A DNA stretch of 64,000 nt from an uncultured Candidatus Saccharibacteria bacterium. GTDB taxonomy: Bacteria; Patescibacteriota; Minisyncoccia; Minisyncoccales; Staskawiczbacteraceae. Shown piece by piece: positions 11,611 to 25,505 of the stretch. Location: positions 144,091-208,090 of the forward strand of contig CAYZNK010000001.1 of the NCBI GenBank assembly GCA_964479955.1, read 5' to 3'. Under the pieces are notes generated by a model, which had not been told where the DNA came from, made no database searches, and worked only from the letters and a program-made list of their open reading frames with translations. Every line of letters begins with the position of its first letter. Position 1 is the first letter of the stretch. The position numbers and the translations under genes are program-made.

Positions 11611-12921
11611 ATGTACGAATCGCCAAATATTAATTTTACAAAAATAAAAAACAAAGTTTTAAAAAACCTGCGGAGCAAGATTTTTTTAAATGGTTTTTAT
11701 TTTATTTTGATTGTAGTTGTAATAATTATCTTATCGTTTGCAATGCTGATAAGATATTTCCCAAAAGAAGCTGAAATGCTGTCAGAATCTTTAAAATTTC
11801 CGCAAATAGAACGGGAGAATAATAAAGCAGTCGAAAATCTGTTAGAAGAACCAGAAAGCTATGAATCAAAAATTTCTTATGAGCAGGCAATTATAGATGT
11901 TGTAAAGAATTCAAGCCAATCGGTTGTAAGCATTGTGATTTCCAAAAATTTGCCTATTTATGAACAAGAATGGGTTAATCCATTTGGGGATGATTCATTT
12001 TTTGACATACAAATACCTCAATATGTGCAAAAAGGAACAGAATATCAGGAAGTAGGGTCTGGCTCCGGATTTGTTGTTTCGTCTGATGGATTGATTTTAA
12101 CAAACAAGCACGTTGTTTCTGATAAGGACGCAGATTACACGGTTATAACGAACGGCGAAGAAAAATATTCTGCCAAAGTTTTGGCAACAGATCCTGTTCA
12201 GGATTTGGCAATAATAAAAATAGAAGACGCCGGAGGAAAAATTTTTAGTCCTTTAAGACTGGGAGATTCTTCTGGCATACAAATAGGGCAAACAGTAATT
12301 GCCATAGGTAATGCGCTAGGGGAGTTTGGCAACACGGTTTCAGTGGGAGTTGTTTCCGGCCTTGGAAGAACAATTTTAGCTTCTGATAAAACAGGGTCAG
12401 TGTCTGAAACATTGGAAGACATTATACAAACCGATGCGGCCATAAATTCCGGCAACTCAGGAGGCCCTTTGCTTAACTTAAAAGGCGAGGTAATTGGGAT
12501 AAGTACAGCAATGGCTGAACAGGCAGAGAATATTGCTTTTGCTATTCCCATCAATTATGCAAAAAGGGATATAGAGCAATCAATTACCACCAGTAAAATC
12601 ATATATCCTTTTTTGGGGGTCAGATATATTTTAGTGACAGAGGAAGTAAAAAAAGAATATGATTTGGGTGTTAATTACGGAGCTCTTATTTCAAAGGGTC
12701 CTGATGGACAGGCGGCTGTGACAAAAGGTTCTGCGGCAGAATCAGCCGGACTTAAAGAAAACGATATTATACTGGAAATAAACGGTCAAAAAATTAATCA
12801 AAGCAACACCCTGTCCAAAATAATACAAAAATATAATGCAGGAGATACGGTAAATTTAAAAATTTTAAGAAACGGCCAGGATTTTAATGTGGATGCAACG
12901 CTTGGGGAGAGAGCAGATTGA
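11611..12921 (+). CDS. htrA: HtrA/DegP-family serine protease with PDZ domain
   Basis: Trypsin-like fold with GSGSGFVV...TNKHVV (His), TDAAINSGNSGGPLLN (Ser), a C-terminal PDZ and an N-terminal TM anchor. Confidence 0.9.
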   Translation: MYESPNINFTKIKNKVLKNLRSKIFLNGFYFILIVVVIIILSFAMLIRYFPKEAEMLSESLKFPQIERENNKAVENLLEEPESYESKISYEQAIIDVVKNSSQSVVSIVISKNLPIYEQEWVNPFGDDSFFDIQIPQYVQKGTEYQEVGSGSGFVVSSDGLILTNKHVVSDKDADYTVITNGEEKYSAKVLATDPVQDLAIIKIEDAGGKIFSPLRLGDSSGIQIGQTVIAIGNALGEFGNTVSVGVVSGLGRTILASDKTGSVSETLEDIIQTDAAINSGNSGGPLLNLKGEVIGISTAMAEQAENIAFAIPINYAKRDIEQSITTSKIIYPFLGVRYILVTEEVKKEYDLGVNYGALISKGPDGQAAVTKGSAAESAGLKENDIILEINGQKINQSNTLSKIIQKYNAGDTVNLKILRNGQDFNVDATLGERAD

Positions 12922-17408: not shown

Positions 17409-17677
17409 ATTATTTCATTTTACCACAAAAAAACATTTTTGTTGTTTTTGCCTATCCCACAAATTAAAAAGTCAATTATGAGGTGTCCGATATCCCACAC
17501 AATAGCTGTATTGCAAAACAAAAGCCCCGGCGCATTGCCAAAGGATTTGGAAATGTTAAGTTATTCACAGTCATTGCTTTGTTTTTATGTTTTTTATTCT
17601 TTATAATTAACCAATTGTTGCAACCAAAGCTCAAAAAAGAGCTAAATTTTGGTTTATAAAATATAAAAAATAAAAAC

Positions 17678-17713
17678 TGCTACTGAATTTGCTACTGAGC
17701 AAATTCAGTAGCA
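17678..17713 (+). promoter_or_regulatory. Very stable hairpin (15-bp perfect stem tgctactgaatttgc/gcaaattcagtagca, loop tactga) 9 nt upstream of the ATG of the next gene
   Basis: Exact reverse-complement arms at 17678-17692 and 17699-17713. The stem contains CTACTGA twice. Confidence 0.45.
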
Positions 17714-17721
17714 AAAACTTT

Positions 17722-18540
17722 ATGAAAATTTCAAAAATAGCAGCTGTAATTTTAAAAACCATAATTGTTTTATTTATGGTTTTTTATACGTATGGAGTAT
17801 TTTTTATTATAAAAGACACAAGCCTTTATAATTGGGCAGTTATAACAATTGTTTTTGTATTTTTGCCTGCCCTGTTTTTTATGTTTTTTGATAAAAAATT
17901 TGTCTTAAAGTTTCCCAAATGGAAAACAAGGGTCCTTGTTGCCAAAGCCATATATATCTGCCTTATTGTTTTGCTTATTGTTGCTATGGCCCTAAGGTAT
18001 AATTACAAAACAAAAACAGAAGATGCTTTGGCTAAAATAAACAGCGCTGTTTTGACAATTGATGATGTTATGGGCACAAATTTGCCCCCAAAGCCAATTC
18101 AAGAGCTAAATGACATGACAGTTGCCGGTTTTGATGTAAACAACAATGGCATAAGGGACGATGTTGAGCTTGCAATTTTTGAAAAATATCCTGATTCTGC
18201 AAAAATCAGGGCAGGAATGTTGCAATATGCCCTTGCTTTGCAGTTGGAGCTTACAGAAGTTATTAATTCAGAGACACTTGTGGCAGTTTTACAGAAAAGG
18301 AGTAATGCTAGAATTTGCATAGACAATGCTGGATTAAAAATAAATCTTGAAACTAATCCTGAAGTGGCAAAAGAAGCTATTGATATTACTGAAAAAAGGA
18401 AAGAAGAAGTAGACAATCTTATATTAAACACGGATTTGCGTTCACAAAAACAAACGGATATTTATAATAATTATATGACAACATATTCAACATCTTTTGA
18501 GACAAATTGCGATATTGAATTATCATCTTTATTTAATTAG
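17722..18540 (+). CDS. Hypothetical membrane protein (3-4 N-terminal TM helices, soluble C-terminal domain)
   Basis: ORF with a hydrophobic N-terminus. Start taken at ATG 17722 rather than 17689, which lies inside the hairpin. No recognisable domain. Confidence 0.5.
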   Translation: MKISKIAAVILKTIIVLFMVFYTYGVFFIIKDTSLYNWAVITIVFVFLPALFFMFFDKKFVLKFPKWKTRVLVAKAIYICLIVLLIVAMALRYNYKTKTEDALAKINSAVLTIDDVMGTNLPPKPIQELNDMTVAGFDVNNNGIRDDVELAIFEKYPDSAKIRAGMLQYALALQLELTEVINSETLVAVLQKRSNARICIDNAGLKINLETNPEVAKEAIDITEKRKEEVDNLILNTDLRSQKQTDIYNNYMTTYSTSFETNCDIELSSLFN

Positions 18541-18545
18541 TTAGC

Positions 18546-20516
18546 ATGAAAAGATTTTTAGTTGTTTTATTTTTATTTGGATTTTTATTATTTCCTTTTA
18601 TTGGTTTTGCAGATTGTAATAAGGATGGAACAACTATTATTTTTATAAATGGAATTTTTGGTAATGAGGCAGCGGCAACGAATGACAAAAAATTACTTGA
18701 AGATACATTTTTTAGATATACTCAAGATAAAAATGTTAAGTTTATTAATGGTTTTAATCCATCGCATGTTGGAAAAATAGGGGATTTAATAAAAGCAGTA
18801 ATGCAGGCCTATGGAAACCAGGATTTGGATTTTGACTTAACAACCATTTTAAACCAAGTTCACAGCCAAATTGAAACAAGAAAAGTTTTGCTTGTGGGTC
18901 ATTCCCAGGGAACTTTTTATACCAATTCAGCTTATGAATATCTGGTTAAAAACGGAGTTTCTCCAAAGTCAATTGCTGTTTATAACATTGCAACTCCCGC
19001 TGATTATGTTGCAGGCAATGGCAGTTATATAACTTCAAGCACAGATAAGGTTATAGAATCAATTGTCAGAGAGCTTACAGAAATTGGCTCTGCAAAAACA
19101 CCGCTTCCCTCAAACATAACAATAGAGCTGTCAGAACAGGAGCAAGCAGATGCTTTTGGTGGACATTCTTTTAGCGGGGTGTATCTTGATGCTGTTCCTG
19201 GTAGAATTATAGGAGATATTTATGATTCTTTGCAAAGCCTTTCTGCAGAAGATAAAAATGATTTAAATGAATGTTTTGAAAAGCCAGGAGAAAGCGTTGC
19301 TTATAAAATGCAAAAATTGGGCCTTGGATTTTTAGATAGCGGATTTAAAACAGCATCAAGTCTGGAGGCAACCGATTTTGTAACAACATCACAAGAAACT
19401 CTGGCAAAAGTATTCAACTGGGGAAAGAGGGTTGTAAGCTATATCGCAAAAGTTTTTGAAAATGGCGGTTTACTTCAGGCGGCTTTGAATAATTTGCAGG
19501 ATAACAATGAAAATAACGGCCAAAATGAAGAGCCGTTTTTTAATGAACAAAACAGCAATTATTCAGAGGAATTATCAGAAGACAGTAAAGACTTTGAGGA
19601 TTTTACAGGAATGGGCGGGCCTGACCCGGATTTGGTTTTTGAAACAGAATTAGACGACCTGTTAGATGAAATTGAAGAAAAGTTAGATGTAATCAATCAA
19701 CAGATAATTGAACTGCAAAGTCAAAACAATGAAAACCAAAAAGAAGACGTCCAAAAAGACAAGGAAGATGAGGATAATAAAGATGGGAAAGAGGACACCC
19801 AAGAAAACGATACAGAGGAAGAAGGCGCAGACCCCCAGGAAATCGTGAACACAACCGGAGGAGGGACCTTAGTAAACTATTTTAAAATCTTGATTTCTGA
19901 AGTTCAAGTTTCAGGTGTGTCTGATTCAAAAGAGGAATTTATTGAGCTTTATAATCCAAACAATGAGACGGTTGACCTAACCGATTGGTATTTGCAGAGA
20001 AAAACAAAAACAGGTTCAGGGTATTTAACACACGCCTCAAAAAATTCATTTTTAGGGAAGAAAATAATGGCCAAAAGTTATTTTTTGATTTCAAGGTGTG
20101 GATATTTTGAAACTTTGTCTGATATCTGCGTTGATAACGCTGTTTCAGATGATAATTCGTTTGTATTAAAAAATCCGTCCGGAGATATATCAGATAAACT
20201 TGGGATAGGAGACGCTCAGGAATACGAAAGTTTGCCGACTCAAAATCCATTGCAGGGCAAAAGTCAGACAATAGGCAGAAAAGTTAACACAGATGGTTCA
20301 GAGCAAGAATCGGACAATAATTTTATGGATTTTGAACTGCAAAATCCAACTCCAAAAGCAGAAAATATTGTTTTTACAGAAACCATAACTCCTAAGGAAC
20401 CCGAATTAAAAAAAATTCTTATAAATGAAATACAAATTGCCGGCACGGAAGACAAAAAAGCCGAGTTTGTTGAGCTCTATAATCTTAATGATGAGGATAT
20501 TGACCTAATTATTTGA
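18546..20516 (+). CDS. Secreted multidomain surface protein, N-terminal segment: signal peptide, lipase-like alpha/beta-hydrolase (GHSQG), acidic linker, lamin-tail domains; frame is interrupted at 20514
   Basis: Signal peptide MKRFLVVLFLFGFLLFPFIGFA. LVGHSQGT nucleophile elbow. A D/E-rich low-complexity linker. LTD motifs EFIELYNPNNETVDLTDWYL and EFVELYNLNDEDIDLI. It ends within the second LTD. Confidence 0.7.
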   Translation: MKRFLVVLFLFGFLLFPFIGFADCNKDGTTIIFINGIFGNEAAATNDKKLLEDTFFRYTQDKNVKFINGFNPSHVGKIGDLIKAVMQAYGNQDLDFDLTTILNQVHSQIETRKVLLVGHSQGTFYTNSAYEYLVKNGVSPKSIAVYNIATPADYVAGNGSYITSSTDKVIESIVRELTEIGSAKTPLPSNITIELSEQEQADAFGGHSFSGVYLDAVPGRIIGDIYDSLQSLSAEDKNDLNECFEKPGESVAYKMQKLGLGFLDSGFKTASSLEATDFVTTSQETLAKVFNWGKRVVSYIAKVFENGGLLQAALNNLQDNNENNGQNEEPFFNEQNSNYSEELSEDSKDFEDFTGMGGPDPDLVFETELDDLLDEIEEKLDVINQQIIELQSQNNENQKEDVQKDKEDEDNKDGKEDTQENDTEEEGADPQEIVNTTGGGTLVNYFKILISEVQVSGVSDSKEEFIELYNPNNETVDLTDWYLQRKTKTGSGYLTHASKNSFLGKKIMAKSYFLISRCGYFETLSDICVDNAVSDDNSFVLKNPSGDISDKLGIGDAQEYESLPTQNPLQGKSQTIGRKVNTDGSEQESDNNFMDFELQNPTPKAENIVFTETITPKEPELKKILINEIQIAGTEDKKAEFVELYNLNDEDIDLII

Positions 20517-20547
20517 TGGAAAAATTATAAGGGGGAAAAACTATTTT

Positions 20548-23088
20548 TTGATATCAAGAGAAGAATACCTCGCAGATAAAGCGGATATTTTTGTTGTTAA
20601 TCCTCTAACCGAAGATAATACTTTGGTTTTAAAGAGGCCCGATAAAAGCATTTCTGATAAAATTGGTTGGCAGAATGCAACTGATTTTGAAACAACCCCT
20701 GCTTGTTCTTTTGCTGACGGCCAAAGCATTGAAAGGAAAATAATCGGCAAAGATACAGATAATAATTTTGATGATTTTAGGGTTTCTGGCGCTCCAAGCC
20801 CAAGGGAAAGCTTTATTAAGGCTGGAATTGAAGACAAAACAGATTATGACAGCAGCCTTAAGTGTGATGACGGAGTTTATTTTTATGAGTTAAGCTTAAG
20901 TTGGGATTCAACATTGCCTGATGTTGAATTTTTCCATTTGCAATATAGATTAAATAATGGGGATTGGCAGGATTGGTTTTTAGAAACAAAAGAAACATCA
21001 GCTAATTTTAAGGGTTTTTATTCTTTGATTGAGGAAGAAAATTTGTATTCTTTTAGAGTAAAAGCGCAGGATATATATGGAAATGAATCTGATTGGCAGG
21101 AAATAGACATTGATTTATCGGTTCCTGTTGTGATTAATGAAGTTGCTTTATTCGGAACAATTGCCGGCAACAGCGACAATTGGCTTGAGCTTTATAATAG
21201 GTCAGAAAATGATGTTGATTTGACAGGATGGCAGATAACTTTTGAAGGAGGAAGCATTTTGTTATCAGAAAAAATTCCGGCAAAAGGATTTTATGTTTTG
21301 GAAAAAGGGGACGATAATGTCTTAGATACGCCCGCTGATAGTATTTTTGAAAGCGGTTTTTCAGGCAGATTTCTTTATTTGAAAGACAGTAAAAACAGGC
21401 GTGTTGACGAGGTTTACGACAATGGAGACTGGAACTACTGTAATGTGGAACAAAATAATTTTTCGTTGGAAAGGATAAGCCCGTATTCTTTTGGGTTTGT
21501 TAAGGAAAATTGGAAGCTTAATGACTCAAAAAAAATGAACGGTAAAGACCGGGATGGAAATTCTGTTTACGGCACTCCGGGAAATGAAAACAGCCATTAC
21601 CAACTATATACGGTTTTGCCAACTGGTTTTGGCAGAGATATTGTTTTGCCAAAAAATTTAAGCCCTTATACGTTTTTTGAAAATACAAAAGTTTTTGAGG
21701 GCACAAAGTTAACAGTTTCCGAGGGGACTGTTTTAAAGGCAATAAATCCGTTTGGCAAGATTGTAATTGAAGGGACATTAAAGGCAATTGGCAGTTCTGA
21801 AGAAAAAATCGTTTTTACTTCTGTTCTTGATGACGAGTTTGGCGGAGATACAAATGATGACCTTTCAGAAACTGTCCCAGGCCCTGGAAACTGGTTTGGC
21901 ATAGAGTTTACCAAAAAAAGCGTGAATTCTGAGATAGATAATGTTATTTTCCGTTATGGCGGGTCATCTTTGATTGAATTTGGCGCTAGCGTGAAAATAA
22001 ATCAAGCTGCTGTGAAAATAAAAAATTCAATATTTGAAAATAACCTTAACAAAGGATTATTTTTGGTAAATTCATCATCTGAAATTGAATCAAGTCAATT
22101 TTTAAATATGCAAGAATCCAGCCCAAACACCGGATTTAATGCGGTGGGAATTTCTGTTTTGGGCGGAGCGGATATTATCAAAGACTGTTATTTTAAAGAA
22201 AACAATTATGGAATTACAGTTGAAAATTGGAATGATGAAAACGGTGAAGTTTTTAATTCTCAAGTTTTAATACAAAATAATAATTTTGAAAAAAACGGAA
22301 AGCCAATATATGCCGGGACCCTGAATAGTCCTGTTTTTTCAGACAATAAAGCTGTAGAAAACGATTGCAACGCAATTGTATTTTTCAGGCATGCAATAAC
22401 AAATGATTTAACCTTAAGGCCGGATTTGCCATATTCGGCAGATGGGTTCTTTTTCGTTCCGGAGAACGCAACATTAAGCTTGGAGCCAGGAGTTGTGATG
22501 AATCTTTCTGGAATAAATATTGACGGAACATTAAAGGCAATAGGAACACAAGAAAGTCCAATTATCTTTAGGGATTATTATTGGGACCAAGAGTGGGCTC
22601 AAAGGCCAGGCAAGTGGCATGGTTTAAGATTTTCAGAAGCAAGTAAAGATTCAGAGCTTGAAAATATTGAAATATCTTTTGCCGGGGATAATTCGCTTGA
22701 AGGGCGTGAATTTGAGGCGGCAATAAGGGCAGAAAACTGCAATATATCTTTAAAAAATTCAAATTTGTATGATAATCAAAATAACGGGTTGTATTTGATA
22801 AACGCAGATGCAGTTGTTGATACGGTTGTTTTTAAAAATCATACTGAAGTGGGATATCTTGGGGCAAGCGCAAATGCAATACATATAAAAGGAGGCAAAA
22901 CAGAGGTAAAAAACTCATATTTTGAAAACCAGACATTCGGTATTTATCTGGAAAAATGGATAGACCCTGATGGCAATGAAATTCTTCCTGATGCCAATTT
23001 GCATACAGACCCAGATGACCCTGAAAAAAATATTTTTGTAAATACTATCACTCCGGGAGGGGATATCTTTGACTCCACTCTTCCTTAA
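20548..23088 (+). CDS. C-terminal segment of the same surface protein: LTD remainder, Fn3-like region, third LTD, right-handed parallel beta-helix (PbH1) repeats
   Basis: The +1 frame, open from 20509, continues the interrupted LTD (KNYFLISREEYLADKADIFVVNP...). A third LTD (NWLELYNRSENDVDLTGWQI) follows. The C-terminus carries many N/G-rich PbH1-type repeats. Confidence 0.7.
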   Translation: MISREEYLADKADIFVVNPLTEDNTLVLKRPDKSISDKIGWQNATDFETTPACSFADGQSIERKIIGKDTDNNFDDFRVSGAPSPRESFIKAGIEDKTDYDSSLKCDDGVYFYELSLSWDSTLPDVEFFHLQYRLNNGDWQDWFLETKETSANFKGFYSLIEEENLYSFRVKAQDIYGNESDWQEIDIDLSVPVVINEVALFGTIAGNSDNWLELYNRSENDVDLTGWQITFEGGSILLSEKIPAKGFYVLEKGDDNVLDTPADSIFESGFSGRFLYLKDSKNRRVDEVYDNGDWNYCNVEQNNFSLERISPYSFGFVKENWKLNDSKKMNGKDRDGNSVYGTPGNENSHYQLYTVLPTGFGRDIVLPKNLSPYTFFENTKVFEGTKLTVSEGTVLKAINPFGKIVIEGTLKAIGSSEEKIVFTSVLDDEFGGDTNDDLSETVPGPGNWFGIEFTKKSVNSEIDNVIFRYGGSSLIEFGASVKINQAAVKIKNSIFENNLNKGLFLVNSSSEIESSQFLNMQESSPNTGFNAVGISVLGGADIIKDCYFKENNYGITVENWNDENGEVFNSQVLIQNNNFEKNGKPIYAGTLNSPVFSDNKAVENDCNAIVFFRHAITNDLTLRPDLPYSADGFFFVPENATLSLEPGVVMNLSGINIDGTLKAIGTQESPIIFRDYYWDQEWAQRPGKWHGLRFSEASKDSELENIEISFAGDNSLEGREFEAAIRAENCNISLKNSNLYDNQNNGLYLINADAVVDTVVFKNHTEVGYLGASANAIHIKGGKTEVKNSYFENQTFGIYLEKWIDPDGNEILPDANLHTDPDDPEKNIFVNTITPGGDIFDSTLP

Positions 23089-23138
23089 TAAAAAAGCCCC
23101 CAGAATTCCTTCTGAAGGCGTAATTGGTTTCTATGGGG

Positions 23139-23582
23139 CTAACTGCAGAGAGATGCCCATCTCCTGAAGAAAGATTTCTTCGGTTTTGGGTTAAAATCAG
23201 TGCTTACTCCCCACAAATTACCACTTTGAATAAGCCCCAAGATCTTGTCGCGAAGCTTGTTCAAATTGCCTGCCGACCTTGCCTGTACGGCAATGGTCAA
23301 TGTACGGCAGGCGTACTTTACATCGTTTGCAAACCTGCCCTCTTTGACAAGCTCTTTGAACCCATCGCTACGCACTTGGCCCCAAGCATCACCGAGGTAA
23401 AAATATGCCAGAGGAGGCTCTCTGTGGCGGATGTTATCAAGGGGGTCCCTAGATGAAACCTCAATCTCCTCTTTCCAACTCACTGTCATACCTTCTGGCA
23501 CAACAAAGTTTTCTGGCAAGGAAACAAATTGAAGTTTCCTTGCAACCTCCCCCTCGCTGTTTAAAAGAACCAAACTAGACAT
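23139..23582 (-). CDS. Hypothetical protein (147 aa) in GC-rich island, strong SD
   Basis: AAGGAGA SD 6 nt before an ATG. About 48% GC against a roughly 32% background. A divergent promoter lies upstream. No recognisable domain. Confidence 0.5.
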   Translation of the reverse strand: MSSLVLLNSEGEVARKLQFVSLPENFVVPEGMTVSWKEEIEVSSRDPLDNIRHREPPLAYFYLGDAWGQVRSDGFKELVKEGRFANDVKYACRTLTIAVQARSAGNLNKLRDKILGLIQSGNLWGVSTDFNPKPKKSFFRRWASLCS

Positions 23583-23679
23583 AGCCATTCTCCTTTCTTC
23601 TTTGCGTCTTGAGTGGTCTCAAGATCGCTAGTGGAGTGAACAAATCCTATATATTATATATATCACATAAATATTATTT

Positions 23680-23720
23680 TTGTCAATAGAATTGACATAA
23701 ATATAAAAATGAATTATATT
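23680..23720. promoter_or_regulatory. Divergent promoter pair sharing the palindromic operator TGTCAAT-aga-ATTGACA; each half-site is the -35 box of one promoter
   Basis: Plus strand: TTGACA (23692-97), 17 nt, TATATT (23715-20). Minus strand: TTGACA (rc of 23682-87), 18 nt, TG-n-TATATA. Perfect 7-bp inverted repeat with a 3-bp spacer. Confidence 0.55.
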
Positions 23721-23782
23721 TTATGTCAGGTGAATGCGCGTTGCATTTACAACGTTCTTTGTTCTTTTTTTGGAGGTGCGTT

Positions 23783-24061
23783 ATGGCCGACACAACTAAA
23801 CTGGCCGATACGTTTCCCGCGCTGCGCATTGTTGTTACGGTAAGCCCGCAAAATCTGTACGTTACTCTCGAGCATTGCAACAATTTGGGGCTTCTTCCCA
23901 ATGTGTGTGGCTATGAACCTCGGGGGAATCTTATTTTGTTTCAAGTTCTTGTGCCCGACCTTTCTTCTGGCGCCGAAGAAAGATTCAGTGCGGAAATAAA
24001 TCAGTTTGGCGCGAGAATTTGGAAAGTAACCAAAACCAAACTGATATGTCCGGTTTTCTGA
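23783..24061 (+). CDS. Hypothetical protein (92 aa) in GC-rich island, strong SD
   Basis: GGAGGTG SD 6 nt upstream of the ATG (MADTTKLADTFPALRIVV...). About 50% GC. Followed by a rho-independent terminator. Confidence 0.5.
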   Translation: MADTTKLADTFPALRIVVTVSPQNLYVTLEHCNNLGLLPNVCGYEPRGNLILFQVLVPDLSSGAEERFSAEINQFGARIWKVTKTKLICPVF

Positions 24062-24074
24062 TAGCCAACACTAG

Positions 24075-24113
24075 CCCCCTGCGTATTTAAAAGAATACAT
24101 AGGGGGATTTTTT
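24075..24113 (+). terminator. Rho-independent terminator (ccccctgcgtatt / aatacataggggg plus T-run)
   Basis: GC-clamped stem with a small internal loop, followed by attttttat. Confidence 0.6.
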
Positions 24114-24219
24114 ATGGTATTTTGACTTTTGGTTTTTTATTTGATAAATTTAAAATAATTGGCGCAAAAATGCGCGTATAGTTTTGTTTATGCTTTATAT
24201 TTTTTGAGCAAGATAAATC

Positions 24220-24813
24220 ATGAAAGAGGATTTTTTAAAATTAACCAGTTCTGCCTACAGATTGTCAGAGTATTTTCCAGAGTCAGACCCTTTGAAGGCA
24301 AAAGCAAAAGAAAGAATTTTATCTGTAATGGAAACGCTTGTTGCAATTGGGTGCGAGGCAAATTGGGCTGTTTTAGGAGTTTCAAGCCAACAGCGAATAA
24401 TAGGGGATATTGACGCTCTTTTGGGATATTTTGAAATTGCCAAAAATCAGGAATGGGTAAGCTCAATAAACTATCTGATAATTTCAGGAGAATATAAAAA
24501 GATAAGAGATGAAGTTTTGCAGGTTAAGGTTGTTAAAGAAACAATAGCAGATAATAGTGATAAAGAAACGGTTATCAGGCAGAATATAATAGTTGGTGAT
24601 TTAAAAGAGCAAAAATCGCAAAAGTTTTCTGAAAGACAGAAAAAAATAGTTGACTTTTTAAAAGAAAACAAAAAAGCCCAAGTTATGGATTTGCAGGCAG
24701 TATTGCCAAACATAACAAAAAGGACAATAAGAAGGGATTTGGACCAATTATTGGCAACAGGGGAGGTTATCAGAATGGGGGAATTTAATCAGGTATTTTA
24801 TAAAATAAGTTGA
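24220..24813 (+). CDS. Putative transcriptional regulator with C-terminal winged-helix (DeoR-like) HTH
   Basis: C-terminal RQKKIVDFLKENKKAQVMDLQAVLPNITKRTIRRDLDQLLATGEVIR is a DeoR-type HTH signature. N-terminal helical domain of unknown function. Confidence 0.55.
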   Translation: MKEDFLKLTSSAYRLSEYFPESDPLKAKAKERILSVMETLVAIGCEANWAVLGVSSQQRIIGDIDALLGYFEIAKNQEWVSSINYLIISGEYKKIRDEVLQVKVVKETIADNSDKETVIRQNIIVGDLKEQKSQKFSERQKKIVDFLKENKKAQVMDLQAVLPNITKRTIRRDLDQLLATGEVIRMGEFNQVFYKIS

Positions 24814-24821
24814 TGAGTTTT

Positions 24822-24870
24822 GATAGGACATAGTAATGTCAGATAGGACAAAAATATAAGAGATAGGACA
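24822..24870 (+). repeat. Three direct repeats GATAGGACA spaced exactly 20 bp apart (24822, 24842, 24862); putative regulator-binding array upstream of the ECF sigma gene
   Basis: Exact 9-mers with 20-bp periodicity, starting 9 bp after the stop of the HTH gene. Confidence 0.6.
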
Positions 24871-24891
24871 TTTTTACACAAAATAATAAAA

Positions 24892-24990
24892 TAGTCGTAT
24901 TTCCCTTGATTTATTTTTGAGTTTATAGTATAATAAAAAATCATTGAAAAGATAGATATGAATATTATTTTTAGTCGGGAAATACGACTA
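24892..24990 (+). promoter_or_regulatory. 14-bp inverted repeat tagtcgtatttccc ... gggaaatacgacta flanking an AT-rich promoter-like segment (tatagtataat) upstream of the ECF sigma gene
   Basis: Arm 1 at 24892-24905 and arm 2 at 24977-24990 are exact reverse complements. The second arm is itself palindromic (tagtcg-N7-cgacta). Confidence 0.4.
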
Positions 24991-25007
24991 AATAGCATAA
25001 TTAAAAA

Positions 25008-25505
25008 ATGGACGAGATTAGAGAACAATTTAGCCGGATTTATGACCAATATATAGGCAAAATATACAGGTTTGTTTATTTGAAGGTTAGCTCAGAAGAA
25101 GTTGCGCAGGATATTACTTCCAAGGTGTTCACAAAAGGCTGGGAAGCCTATCAAAAAGGGGTTAAAAACCCAGGGGCTTTTCTTTATCAGATAGCCAGAA
25201 ATTCTGTTATTGATTATTATAGAGAAAAAGGTAGGACAAACACAGTATCTTCGGATTCAATTCCTGAATTGCAAGATAATAGCAAAAGCATAGAAGAAAA
25301 CGCTATTTTGGCTGCTGATGTAAAAATGGTAAAAACAGCCCTATTAAGGATAAAAAAAGACTATCAGGATGTCCTTATTTGGCATTATTTGGATGATATG
25401 CCGATAAGCCAGATTGCCGAAAATCTTAATAAAAAAGAAGGGGCGGTCAGGGTAATGATACACAGGGGCCTAAAAGACCTAAAAGATATTATTCAATCCT
25501 CCTAA
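25008..25505 (+). CDS. RNA polymerase sigma-70 factor, ECF subfamily
   Basis: Sigma-2 region (YRFVYLKVSSEEVAQDITSKVF) and sigma-4 HTH (DDMPISQIAENLNKKEGAVRVMIHRGLKDL). Confidence 0.85.
   Translation: MDEIREQFSRIYDQYIGKIYRFVYLKVSSEEVAQDITSKVFTKGWEAYQKGVKNPGAFLYQIARNSVIDYYREKGRTNTVSSDSIPELQDNSKSIEENAILAADVKMVKTALLRIKKDYQDVLIWHYLDDMPISQIAENLNKKEGAVRVMIHRGLKDLKDIIQSS

Follow-up and report, generated by a model that had tools for sequence, protein, structure and literature searches.

Do two reading frames that overlap by a few bases in a Patescibacteria genome represent two genes, one gene that is read through by ribosomal frameshifting, or one gene that has been broken? The question arises at positions 18546-23088 (plus strand, as are all features below unless stated otherwise) of a 64,000-nucleotide (nt) stretch of contig CAYZNK010000001.1, referred to here as the window, i.e. 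the whole stretch of DNA that was analysed. The window is AT-rich (~33% GC) and densely coding, and Rfam and tRNA scans of it were empty. Open reading frame 1 (ORF1, 18546-20516) comprises 656 codons and its 656-amino acid (aa) product ends with ...EFVELYNLNDEDIDLII, the stop codon being TGA at 20514-20516. The +1 frame is closed by TAA at 20506-20508 and open from 20509 up to the TAA at 23086-23088, which gives ORF2 (20509-23088, 859 codons); this frame has no ATG start and its earliest possible start is a TTG at 20548. These coordinates agree with an initial annotation of the locus, in which the two ORFs were taken as one gene for a large secreted protein, interrupted in the second of three lamin-tail domains (LTD1 to LTD3). 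Judging from the sequences compared below, we report that ORF1 and ORF2 together make up one gene for a secreted or surface protein of ~1,540 residues, ORF1 being its N-terminal part with a premature stop, and that the interruption is probably a real and recent 65-nt deletion in LTD2, including the case that a variant allele was captured by the assembler. What the locus shows is a recent gene disruption of an ordinary kind, or else an assembly error, and not an instance of programmed frameshifting.

The conceptual fusion of ORF1 and ORF2 was used as query in a search of 5.8 billion proteins. Its closest homolog, P0001 (JGI record Ga0378408_0001239), is a single intact chain of 1,538 aa with 82% identity over 99% of the query, and dozens of further, more distant single-chain homologs of 1,400-1,700 aa have the same domains. 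An alignment of both halves to intact homologs, as proposed in the initial annotation, placed ORF1 on residues 1-659 of P0001 (80% amino-acid identity) and ORF2 on residues 682-1538 (86%), such that P0001 spans both in one chain. P0001 is encoded on L001, a JGI contig of 54 kb in synteny with the window, with ~10 neighbour genes of equal or near-equal length; apart from the LTD gene itself, these include genes for a glycosyltransferase, a 345-aa protein, an HtrA-like protease, ClpB, a 133-aa prepilin-like protein, a 272-aa protein, a 197-aa helix-turn-helix (HTH) protein and a sigma factor. Among the genes common to the two contigs the LTD gene alone is disrupted in the window, and because its single-chain ortholog is intact in a syntenic contig, the two ORFs are to be seen as one interrupted gene.

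That ORF2 is a gene of its own, or that TGA encodes an amino acid here (genetic code 4 or 25), has a negligible chance of being the explanation. The candidate TTG start at 20548 has AGGGGG upstream, and TGA is recoded in some relatives within the Patescibacteria. However, no homolog ends at the ORF1 stop, which is what the initial annotation had named as the mark of two genuinely separate genes, and none begins at the start of ORF2. The long ORFs of the window have A/T-rich leaders upstream of their start codons, without a Shine-Dalgarno (SD) motif except in two ORFs of a foreign-looking insert (see below), and this suggests that translation initiation in this genome is SD-independent. Since the genome does without SD leaders and ORF2 is without a signal peptide, independent translation of ORF2 from the TTG is unlikely. 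Moreover, TGA terminates 11 of the 53 long ORFs in the window and is thus an ordinary stop here, and frame 0 meets a TAA 20 codons past the TGA; on these two grounds TGA as a sense codon was rejected. A homolog search centred on the junction returned only five distant proteins, P0001 not among them, and was uninformative.

The lesion itself became apparent in a pairwise DNA alignment and by blastn. Window positions 17600-20506 pair with L001 9060-11970 and window positions 20508-23088 with L001 12037-14617, and the window is without 65 nt that are present in L001 (approximately 11969 to 12034, reading about GACTGGCTGGTATTTGCAAAG...CCTGCCAC). The deletion junction lies at about 20503-20508, with bounds that shift by 1-2 bases, CC flanking both ends of the missing stretch in L001. 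As 65 mod 3 = 2, the downstream part is set in the +1 frame, and the premature TGA arises where the codons for a conserved Leu-Phe-Asp/Glu, TTA TTT GAT, are translated in the wrong frame as ATT ATT TGA. The loss at the protein level amounts to 22 residues (TGWYLQRKTASSENYSTYAPAT in P0001), a segment that is kept in five of the five closest homologs examined. The change of frame is confined to the 8 nt at 20509-20516 (TTATTTGA), which hold no homopolymer (the longest run is T3) and no repeat tract; runs of A5, G5, A5 and T6 are found within 40 nt downstream. The initial annotation had located the interruption at a T/A run and described the +1 frame as continuing the same domain exactly, but the break is a 65-nt gap relative to the ortholog and 22 residues of LTD2 are missing across it. 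A microhomology-mediated deletion was also considered and could not be established, the ends of the missing stretch in L001 having in common just CC or, with an offset, CCTG.

The deletion has left two remnants of LTD2. The N-terminal remnant (20409-20513; KKILINEIQ...ELYNLNDEDIDLII) covers positions 6-38 only of the Pfam LTD model (PF00932, cut-off 34.3 bits) and aligns with P0001 residues 625-659, while the C-terminal remnant (20509-20805; LFDGKIIRGKNYFLISR...DFRVSGAPSPRES) aligns with the second half of LTD2 in P0001 to P0005 and, taken alone, is not recognised by Pfam. When the two are fused the score is 24.4 bits, again over hidden Markov model (HMM) positions 6-38 only, compared with 54.2 bits over positions 6-108 for LTD2 of the ortholog. 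The ELYN and YFLI motifs are 36-47 aa apart, with one case of 29, among 94 LTDs of the homologs, versus 18 aa in the fused LTD2 of the window. In an AlphaFold2 (AF2) model of the paralogous LTD1 of the window (predicted local distance difference test score, pLDDT, 92.1) the equivalent segment (residues 39-60) forms two beta-strands and includes a Trp-Tyr pair, W41/Y42, that is invariant in 29 sequences. Because the missing 22 residues hold this pair and two strands, a frameshifted fusion product would, according to the model, still carry a broken LTD2. The claim of three LTDs in the initial annotation accordingly applies to the intact gene; in the window LTD1 and LTD3 pass the Pfam cut-off and LTD2 is broken. 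We also observed that the N-terminal remnant reads ELYNL (window 20481-20483) where ≥90% of homologous LTDs, i.e. at least that share, read ELYNP; this is a substitution at a conserved site of a broken domain and, as a single data point, may be meaningless.

How old could the deletion be? Relative to L001, dS is ~0.6 in both halves, and dN/dS is 0.196 for ORF1 and 0.114 for ORF2, where it is uniformly low along the frame. No stop occurs in the 857 codons of ORF2, and with 4.9% of all possible ORF2 substitutions creating one, ~1.25 stops would be expected per 1% neutral divergence. In a relative-rate count with P0002 to P0005 as outgroups, ORF2 had 27 window-specific and 17 L001-specific amino-acid changes (p=0.17, i.e. 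no significant acceleration) and ORF1 had 20 and 18, respectively. The lack of decay in ORF2 implies that the deletion is very recent or an assembly artefact. From these substitution patterns ORF2 appears to have been under selection for essentially its whole history, and the deletion would correspond to well under ~2% neutral divergence, or not be real.

Two assemblies other than L001 bear on this region. L002 (Ga0265297_10015247) is an independent assembly of a sister population, 100% identical to L001 over 8,763 nt, and was the only match to a flank-pattern search of a metagenome collection; the same search found nothing in GTDB genomes. It is intact across the left edge of the missing segment and terminates 40 nt inside the same 65 nt (L002 1-66 corresponds to L001 11941-12006), a break that could be due to strain heterogeneity or to a repeat problem at this spot. 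L083 (a 1.6-kb Logan contig from SRR10769903), which was found via the 197-aa HTH protein, stems from a closer strain and is 98.6% identical to the window over 24120-25309; it covers just the last 69 codons of the LTD gene.

That the deletion is real and recent, perhaps as a variant allele, is our preferred reading and we consider it probable. There is an intact ortholog, and the loss is lineage-specific and breaks both the frame and a conserved domain, as expected of a pseudogene or a truncated allele; the recent pseudogenisation listed as one option in the initial annotation is therefore in keeping with the sequence, the disruption being a frame-breaking loss of 65 nt. Alternatively, the gene is intact in the organism and the 65 nt were dropped in assembly, in polishing or in the binning of a strain mixture, and this we regard as unlikely though not negligible. 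An artefact of this kind would readily explain why ORF2 is perfectly preserved, with the low dN/dS (0.11), the absence of stops and the lack of acceleration given above. LTD1 and LTD2 resemble each other as diverged repeats, with 75% identity over 123 nt and one exact 19-mer in common in L001, and the end of L002 within the segment suggests a spot that is hard to assemble or heterogeneous. However, collapse of the LTD1-LTD2 repeat would drop ~528 nt and not 65 nt inside LTD2. A k-mer collapse, i.e. a de Bruijn graph artefact, is implausible because the flanks of the deletion share only CC or CCTG, and 2-4 nt are far too short for it. Errors in long reads are typically of 1-2 nt in homopolymers and the junction is without a homopolymer; the assembly indel suggested initially would hence have to be an error of another type, a 65-nt loss. 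All other genes in common with L001 are intact, which argues that the assembly is not generally error-prone.

Several points weigh against a real deletion, or against a single one. The absence of any decay in ORF2 is equally expected from an artefact. The contig of the window is absent from the searchable collections, where we found no independent assembly of the same strain, and exact-protein look-ups with ORF1, ClpB and the 272-aa and 133-aa neighbours gave no match. The lesion is known from assembled sequence alone, and a consensus or assembly error may thus lie behind it. Finally, an in-frame loss of 66 nt combined with a 1-nt insertion gives the identical sequence, but needs two events.

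The layout of the junction invites two further explanations, both of which the initial annotation had raised. In programmed +1 ribosomal frameshifting a full-length fusion would be made at ATT ATT TGA, as in prfB (release factor 2), where likewise an in-frame TGA comes after a sense codon and the +1 frame is open, and purifying selection on ORF2 relative to the ortholog would seem to favour it. That selection is, however, explained by the time before the deletion. Neither the ortholog nor any other homolog examined has a shift site, all of them being in frame, so that there is nothing conserved for selection to act on, and the site is a by-product of the 65-nt deletion. Different from prfB, moreover, no SD-like element that could act as stimulator precedes 20508-20516, and the product would be structurally defective, lacking two strands and the invariant Trp-Tyr of LTD2. 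We therefore hold programmed frameshifting to be highly improbable. The same applies to a phase-variable contingency locus operating by slipped-strand mispairing at the T/A-rich junction, for which we see hardly any likelihood. Large surface-protein genes belong to a class that is often phase-variable, and the homopolymer runs mentioned above are close by; but the frame change must fall within 20509-20516, where the longest run is T3 and no repeat tract is present, and the two alleles differ by 65 nt of unique sequence that slippage cannot restore.

Returning to the deletion as a real event, its consequences may be pictured as follows. A single 65-bp deletion in LTD2 would take out 22 codons minus one base and throw the downstream 857 codons into the +1 frame, whereupon the ribosome would meet ATT ATT TGA and stop. 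The cell would then make and export only the 656-residue product, with signal peptide, hydrolase, linker, LTD1 and a stub of LTD2. The part with LTD3 and the beta-helix would either be silent or, given internal initiation, remain in the cytoplasm for want of a signal peptide. As the stranded part is without decay, the deletion would be very young, or a variant allele captured by the assembly. Natural members of the protein family of 270-800 aa exist, and by analogy with these the hydrolase module may be functional in the absence of the long tail.

The domain combination given in the initial annotation was largely confirmed; the order of parts in the gene is a signal peptide, an alpha/beta-hydrolase, an acidic linker, LTD1, LTD2, an Fn3-like spacer, LTD3 and two beta-helix modules. 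The N-terminal end is a putative Sec signal peptide or anchor (18546-18611; MKRFLVVLFLFGFLLFPFIGFA, then DC), as read from its sequence: it has a basic start (MKR), a hydrophobic stretch and a small-residue site (...GFA followed by DC), and residues 2-15 were modelled as a lone helix. Residues 320-445 (19503-19880) form an acidic low-complexity linker with 33% Asp+Glu, in line with the initial annotation, and 21% Asn+Gln; with a dN/dS of 0.26 it is the fastest-evolving part of the gene. LTD1 (19884-20207) is intact. The ORF1 product scores 63.8 bits against PF00932 as a whole protein, LTD1 giving the best stretch (residues 447-554, HMM positions 7-107), and the AF2 model is a beta-sandwich. 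Downstream of the LTD2 remnants, 20806-21123 encodes a putative Fn3-like beta-sandwich spacer. Its matches to fn3 and FN3_DSCAM are sub-threshold (E 0.04-0.08), with fn3 (PF00041) at 13.6 bits and E 0.079 against a cut-off of 25 bits, and the Fn3 domain that had been assigned to this protein is thus not borne out by Pfam; some homologs do carry PF00041. LTD3 (21124-21414; residues 206-302 of the product of the frame opening at 20509) is intact and accounts, as a single stretch over HMM positions 7-105, for the 40.8 bits of the ORF2 product. The predicted beta-helix was present: two tandem right-handed beta-helix modules of ~245 residues each occupy 21640-23085, where Beta_helix (PF13229) matches with 55.6 bits in three stretches, the best being 22723-22953 (cut-off 25.9), and direct repeats lie 732-753 nt apart (22019/22751 and 21766/22519).

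The hydrolase module (approximately residues 24-245; 18615-19280) was characterised by invariant columns, an AF2 model and Foldseek. The GHSQG motif noted initially is present with Ser120 as its serine, and Ser120, Asp167, His207, Cys24 and Cys243 are invariant across 40 homologs; Ser, Asp and His follow each other in the canonical order of serine hydrolases. The AF2 model (pLDDT 90.8) has alternating beta and alpha elements. The top Foldseek matches in the PDB were cutinases, small bacterial and archaeal lipases and a yeast serine hydrolase, with a probability of ~1, template modelling (TM) scores of 0.3-0.5 and 8-17% identity. Pfam matches were sub-threshold only (Lipase_3 16.0 bits, DUF676 13.6 bits and VirJ 12.6 bits, for cut-offs of 22, 22 and 20.3 bits), and an NCBIfam search and a PDB sequence search gave nothing meaningful. 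With cutinases (e.g. PDB 4psd and 1cuz), Bacillus LipA-type lipases (1t2n) and the three Pfam families the module shares the GxSxG elbow and the Ser-Asp-His order, along with a predicted extracellular setting, a predicted disulfide and, judging from the AF2 model, perhaps the small alpha/beta fold; it differs from them in reaching no family threshold, in the low TM scores and in heading adhesin-like proteins of 200-1,900 aa. We take it to be a putative serine hydrolase of the alpha/beta-hydrolase type. The lipase and host-lipid acquisition role proposed initially rests on a GxSxG module of the alpha/beta-hydrolase type whose similarity to cutinases and lipases is weak, and "lipase" is a guess at the level of the fold.

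A search for the module gave 407 cluster representatives at E≤1e-30 among 1.84 billion. In the 150 best-scoring of these, for which its position was read, the module is N-terminal, and the proteins measure ~200-1,900 aa with varied tails that include LTD, Big_13, DUF2341, a glucodextranase-N-like domain and beta-helix. The module, recognisable by GHSQGTFYTN and the invariant Cys pair, corresponds to no Pfam or NCBIfam family. GTDB genomes that carry it belong to Staskawiczbacteria (the best matches), Kaiserbacteria, Adlerbacteria, Paceibacterota, Nomurabacteria and other Patescibacteria, and the names of the homologous records support a Patescibacteria, Staskawiczbacteria-like setting for the window. 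LTD proteins of Patescibacteria, or candidate phyla radiation (CPR), that combine PF00932 and PF13229, such as P0001 and P0030 (Candidatus Staskawiczbacteria), have the same architecture. P0001 is colinear with the fusion over 99% of the length and has the same gene neighbourhood, and LTD1, LTD3 and the beta-helix of the window pass the Pfam thresholds; the copy in the window differs from these proteins in the 65 nt missing from LTD2 and in being split over two frames. We found no paper that ties LTD proteins to a function in Patescibacteria, and the sole paper found mentions an LTD protein merely as the neighbour of a CRISPR locus (PMC6509639).

A related gene on the Candidatus Staskawiczbacteria contig JAPLYZ010000007.1 (L010, 8100-9300) has an in-frame TAG inside an LTD (DLTGWYLQRKKQNDAS*GAFVSSTNF..., the asterisk marking the stop), and the same frame then stays open over the remainder of the LTD and over the beta-helix. 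Its interruption is within the same loop as that of the window, after DLTGWYLQRK; it is a point change to TAG after which the frame continues, as opposed to a 65-nt deletion with a frameshift. By its sequence it would be another disrupted copy, broken at the corresponding position, or else a sequencing error there.

The neighbouring DNA differs among the contigs in three respects. Between the LTD gene and the 197-aa HTH gene the window has ~1 kb (23089-24105) without a counterpart in L001, where the interval is 186 nt, or in the closer strain L083. This insert has a GC content of 0.43-0.50, compared with ~0.35 in the surrounding sequence, and encodes two small, divergent ORFs, one of 149 aa at 23139-23588 (minus strand) and one of 92 aa at 23783-24061 (plus strand). 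Unlike every other gene in the window both have GGAG-type SD motifs upstream. A hairpin with a T-run is found at ~24064-24112, and neither ORF could be identified with Pfam or PADLOC. By its composition and signals the insert looks like a horizontally acquired two-gene cassette. Conversely, L001 has a ~2-kb insert (L001 6997-9060 versus window 17425-17600) that is missing from the window; it lies between the genes for the prepilin-like and the 272-aa protein and carries a 384-aa ORF and a 257-aa Tsp45I-like restriction endonuclease. Finally, L083 has two copies of a ~27-nt direct repeat, ctttgcggtgtcggagaccgcaagacc, with internal hairpin potential in the intergenic region downstream of the LTD gene (215-330), and this repeat is missing from the window.

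What does the disrupted gene mean for the family? As a more far-reaching scenario, which we consider improbable, the short allele might be real and segregating, and truncation might recur in the family (as hinted at by L010 and by the break in L002), freeing a soluble hydrolase-LTD1 protein from the beta-helix adhesin part under selection by host or phage; the module would then represent an undescribed, largely Patescibacteria-associated family of secreted esterases on interchangeable adhesin tails that attack or scavenge host envelope lipids. The ordinary interpretation is that a gene from a common but uncharacterised family of Patescibacteria surface proteins was disrupted, or that the assembly is in error. 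In annotation the two ORFs are best entered as a single disrupted gene (pseudogene, truncated allele or possible assembly error) and neither as two proteins nor as a recoding event, so that no programmed frameshift is wrongly reported from a Patescibacteria genome. If it is true that the N-terminal module is a host-lipid esterase, the family would bear on how lipid-auxotrophic episymbionts feed.

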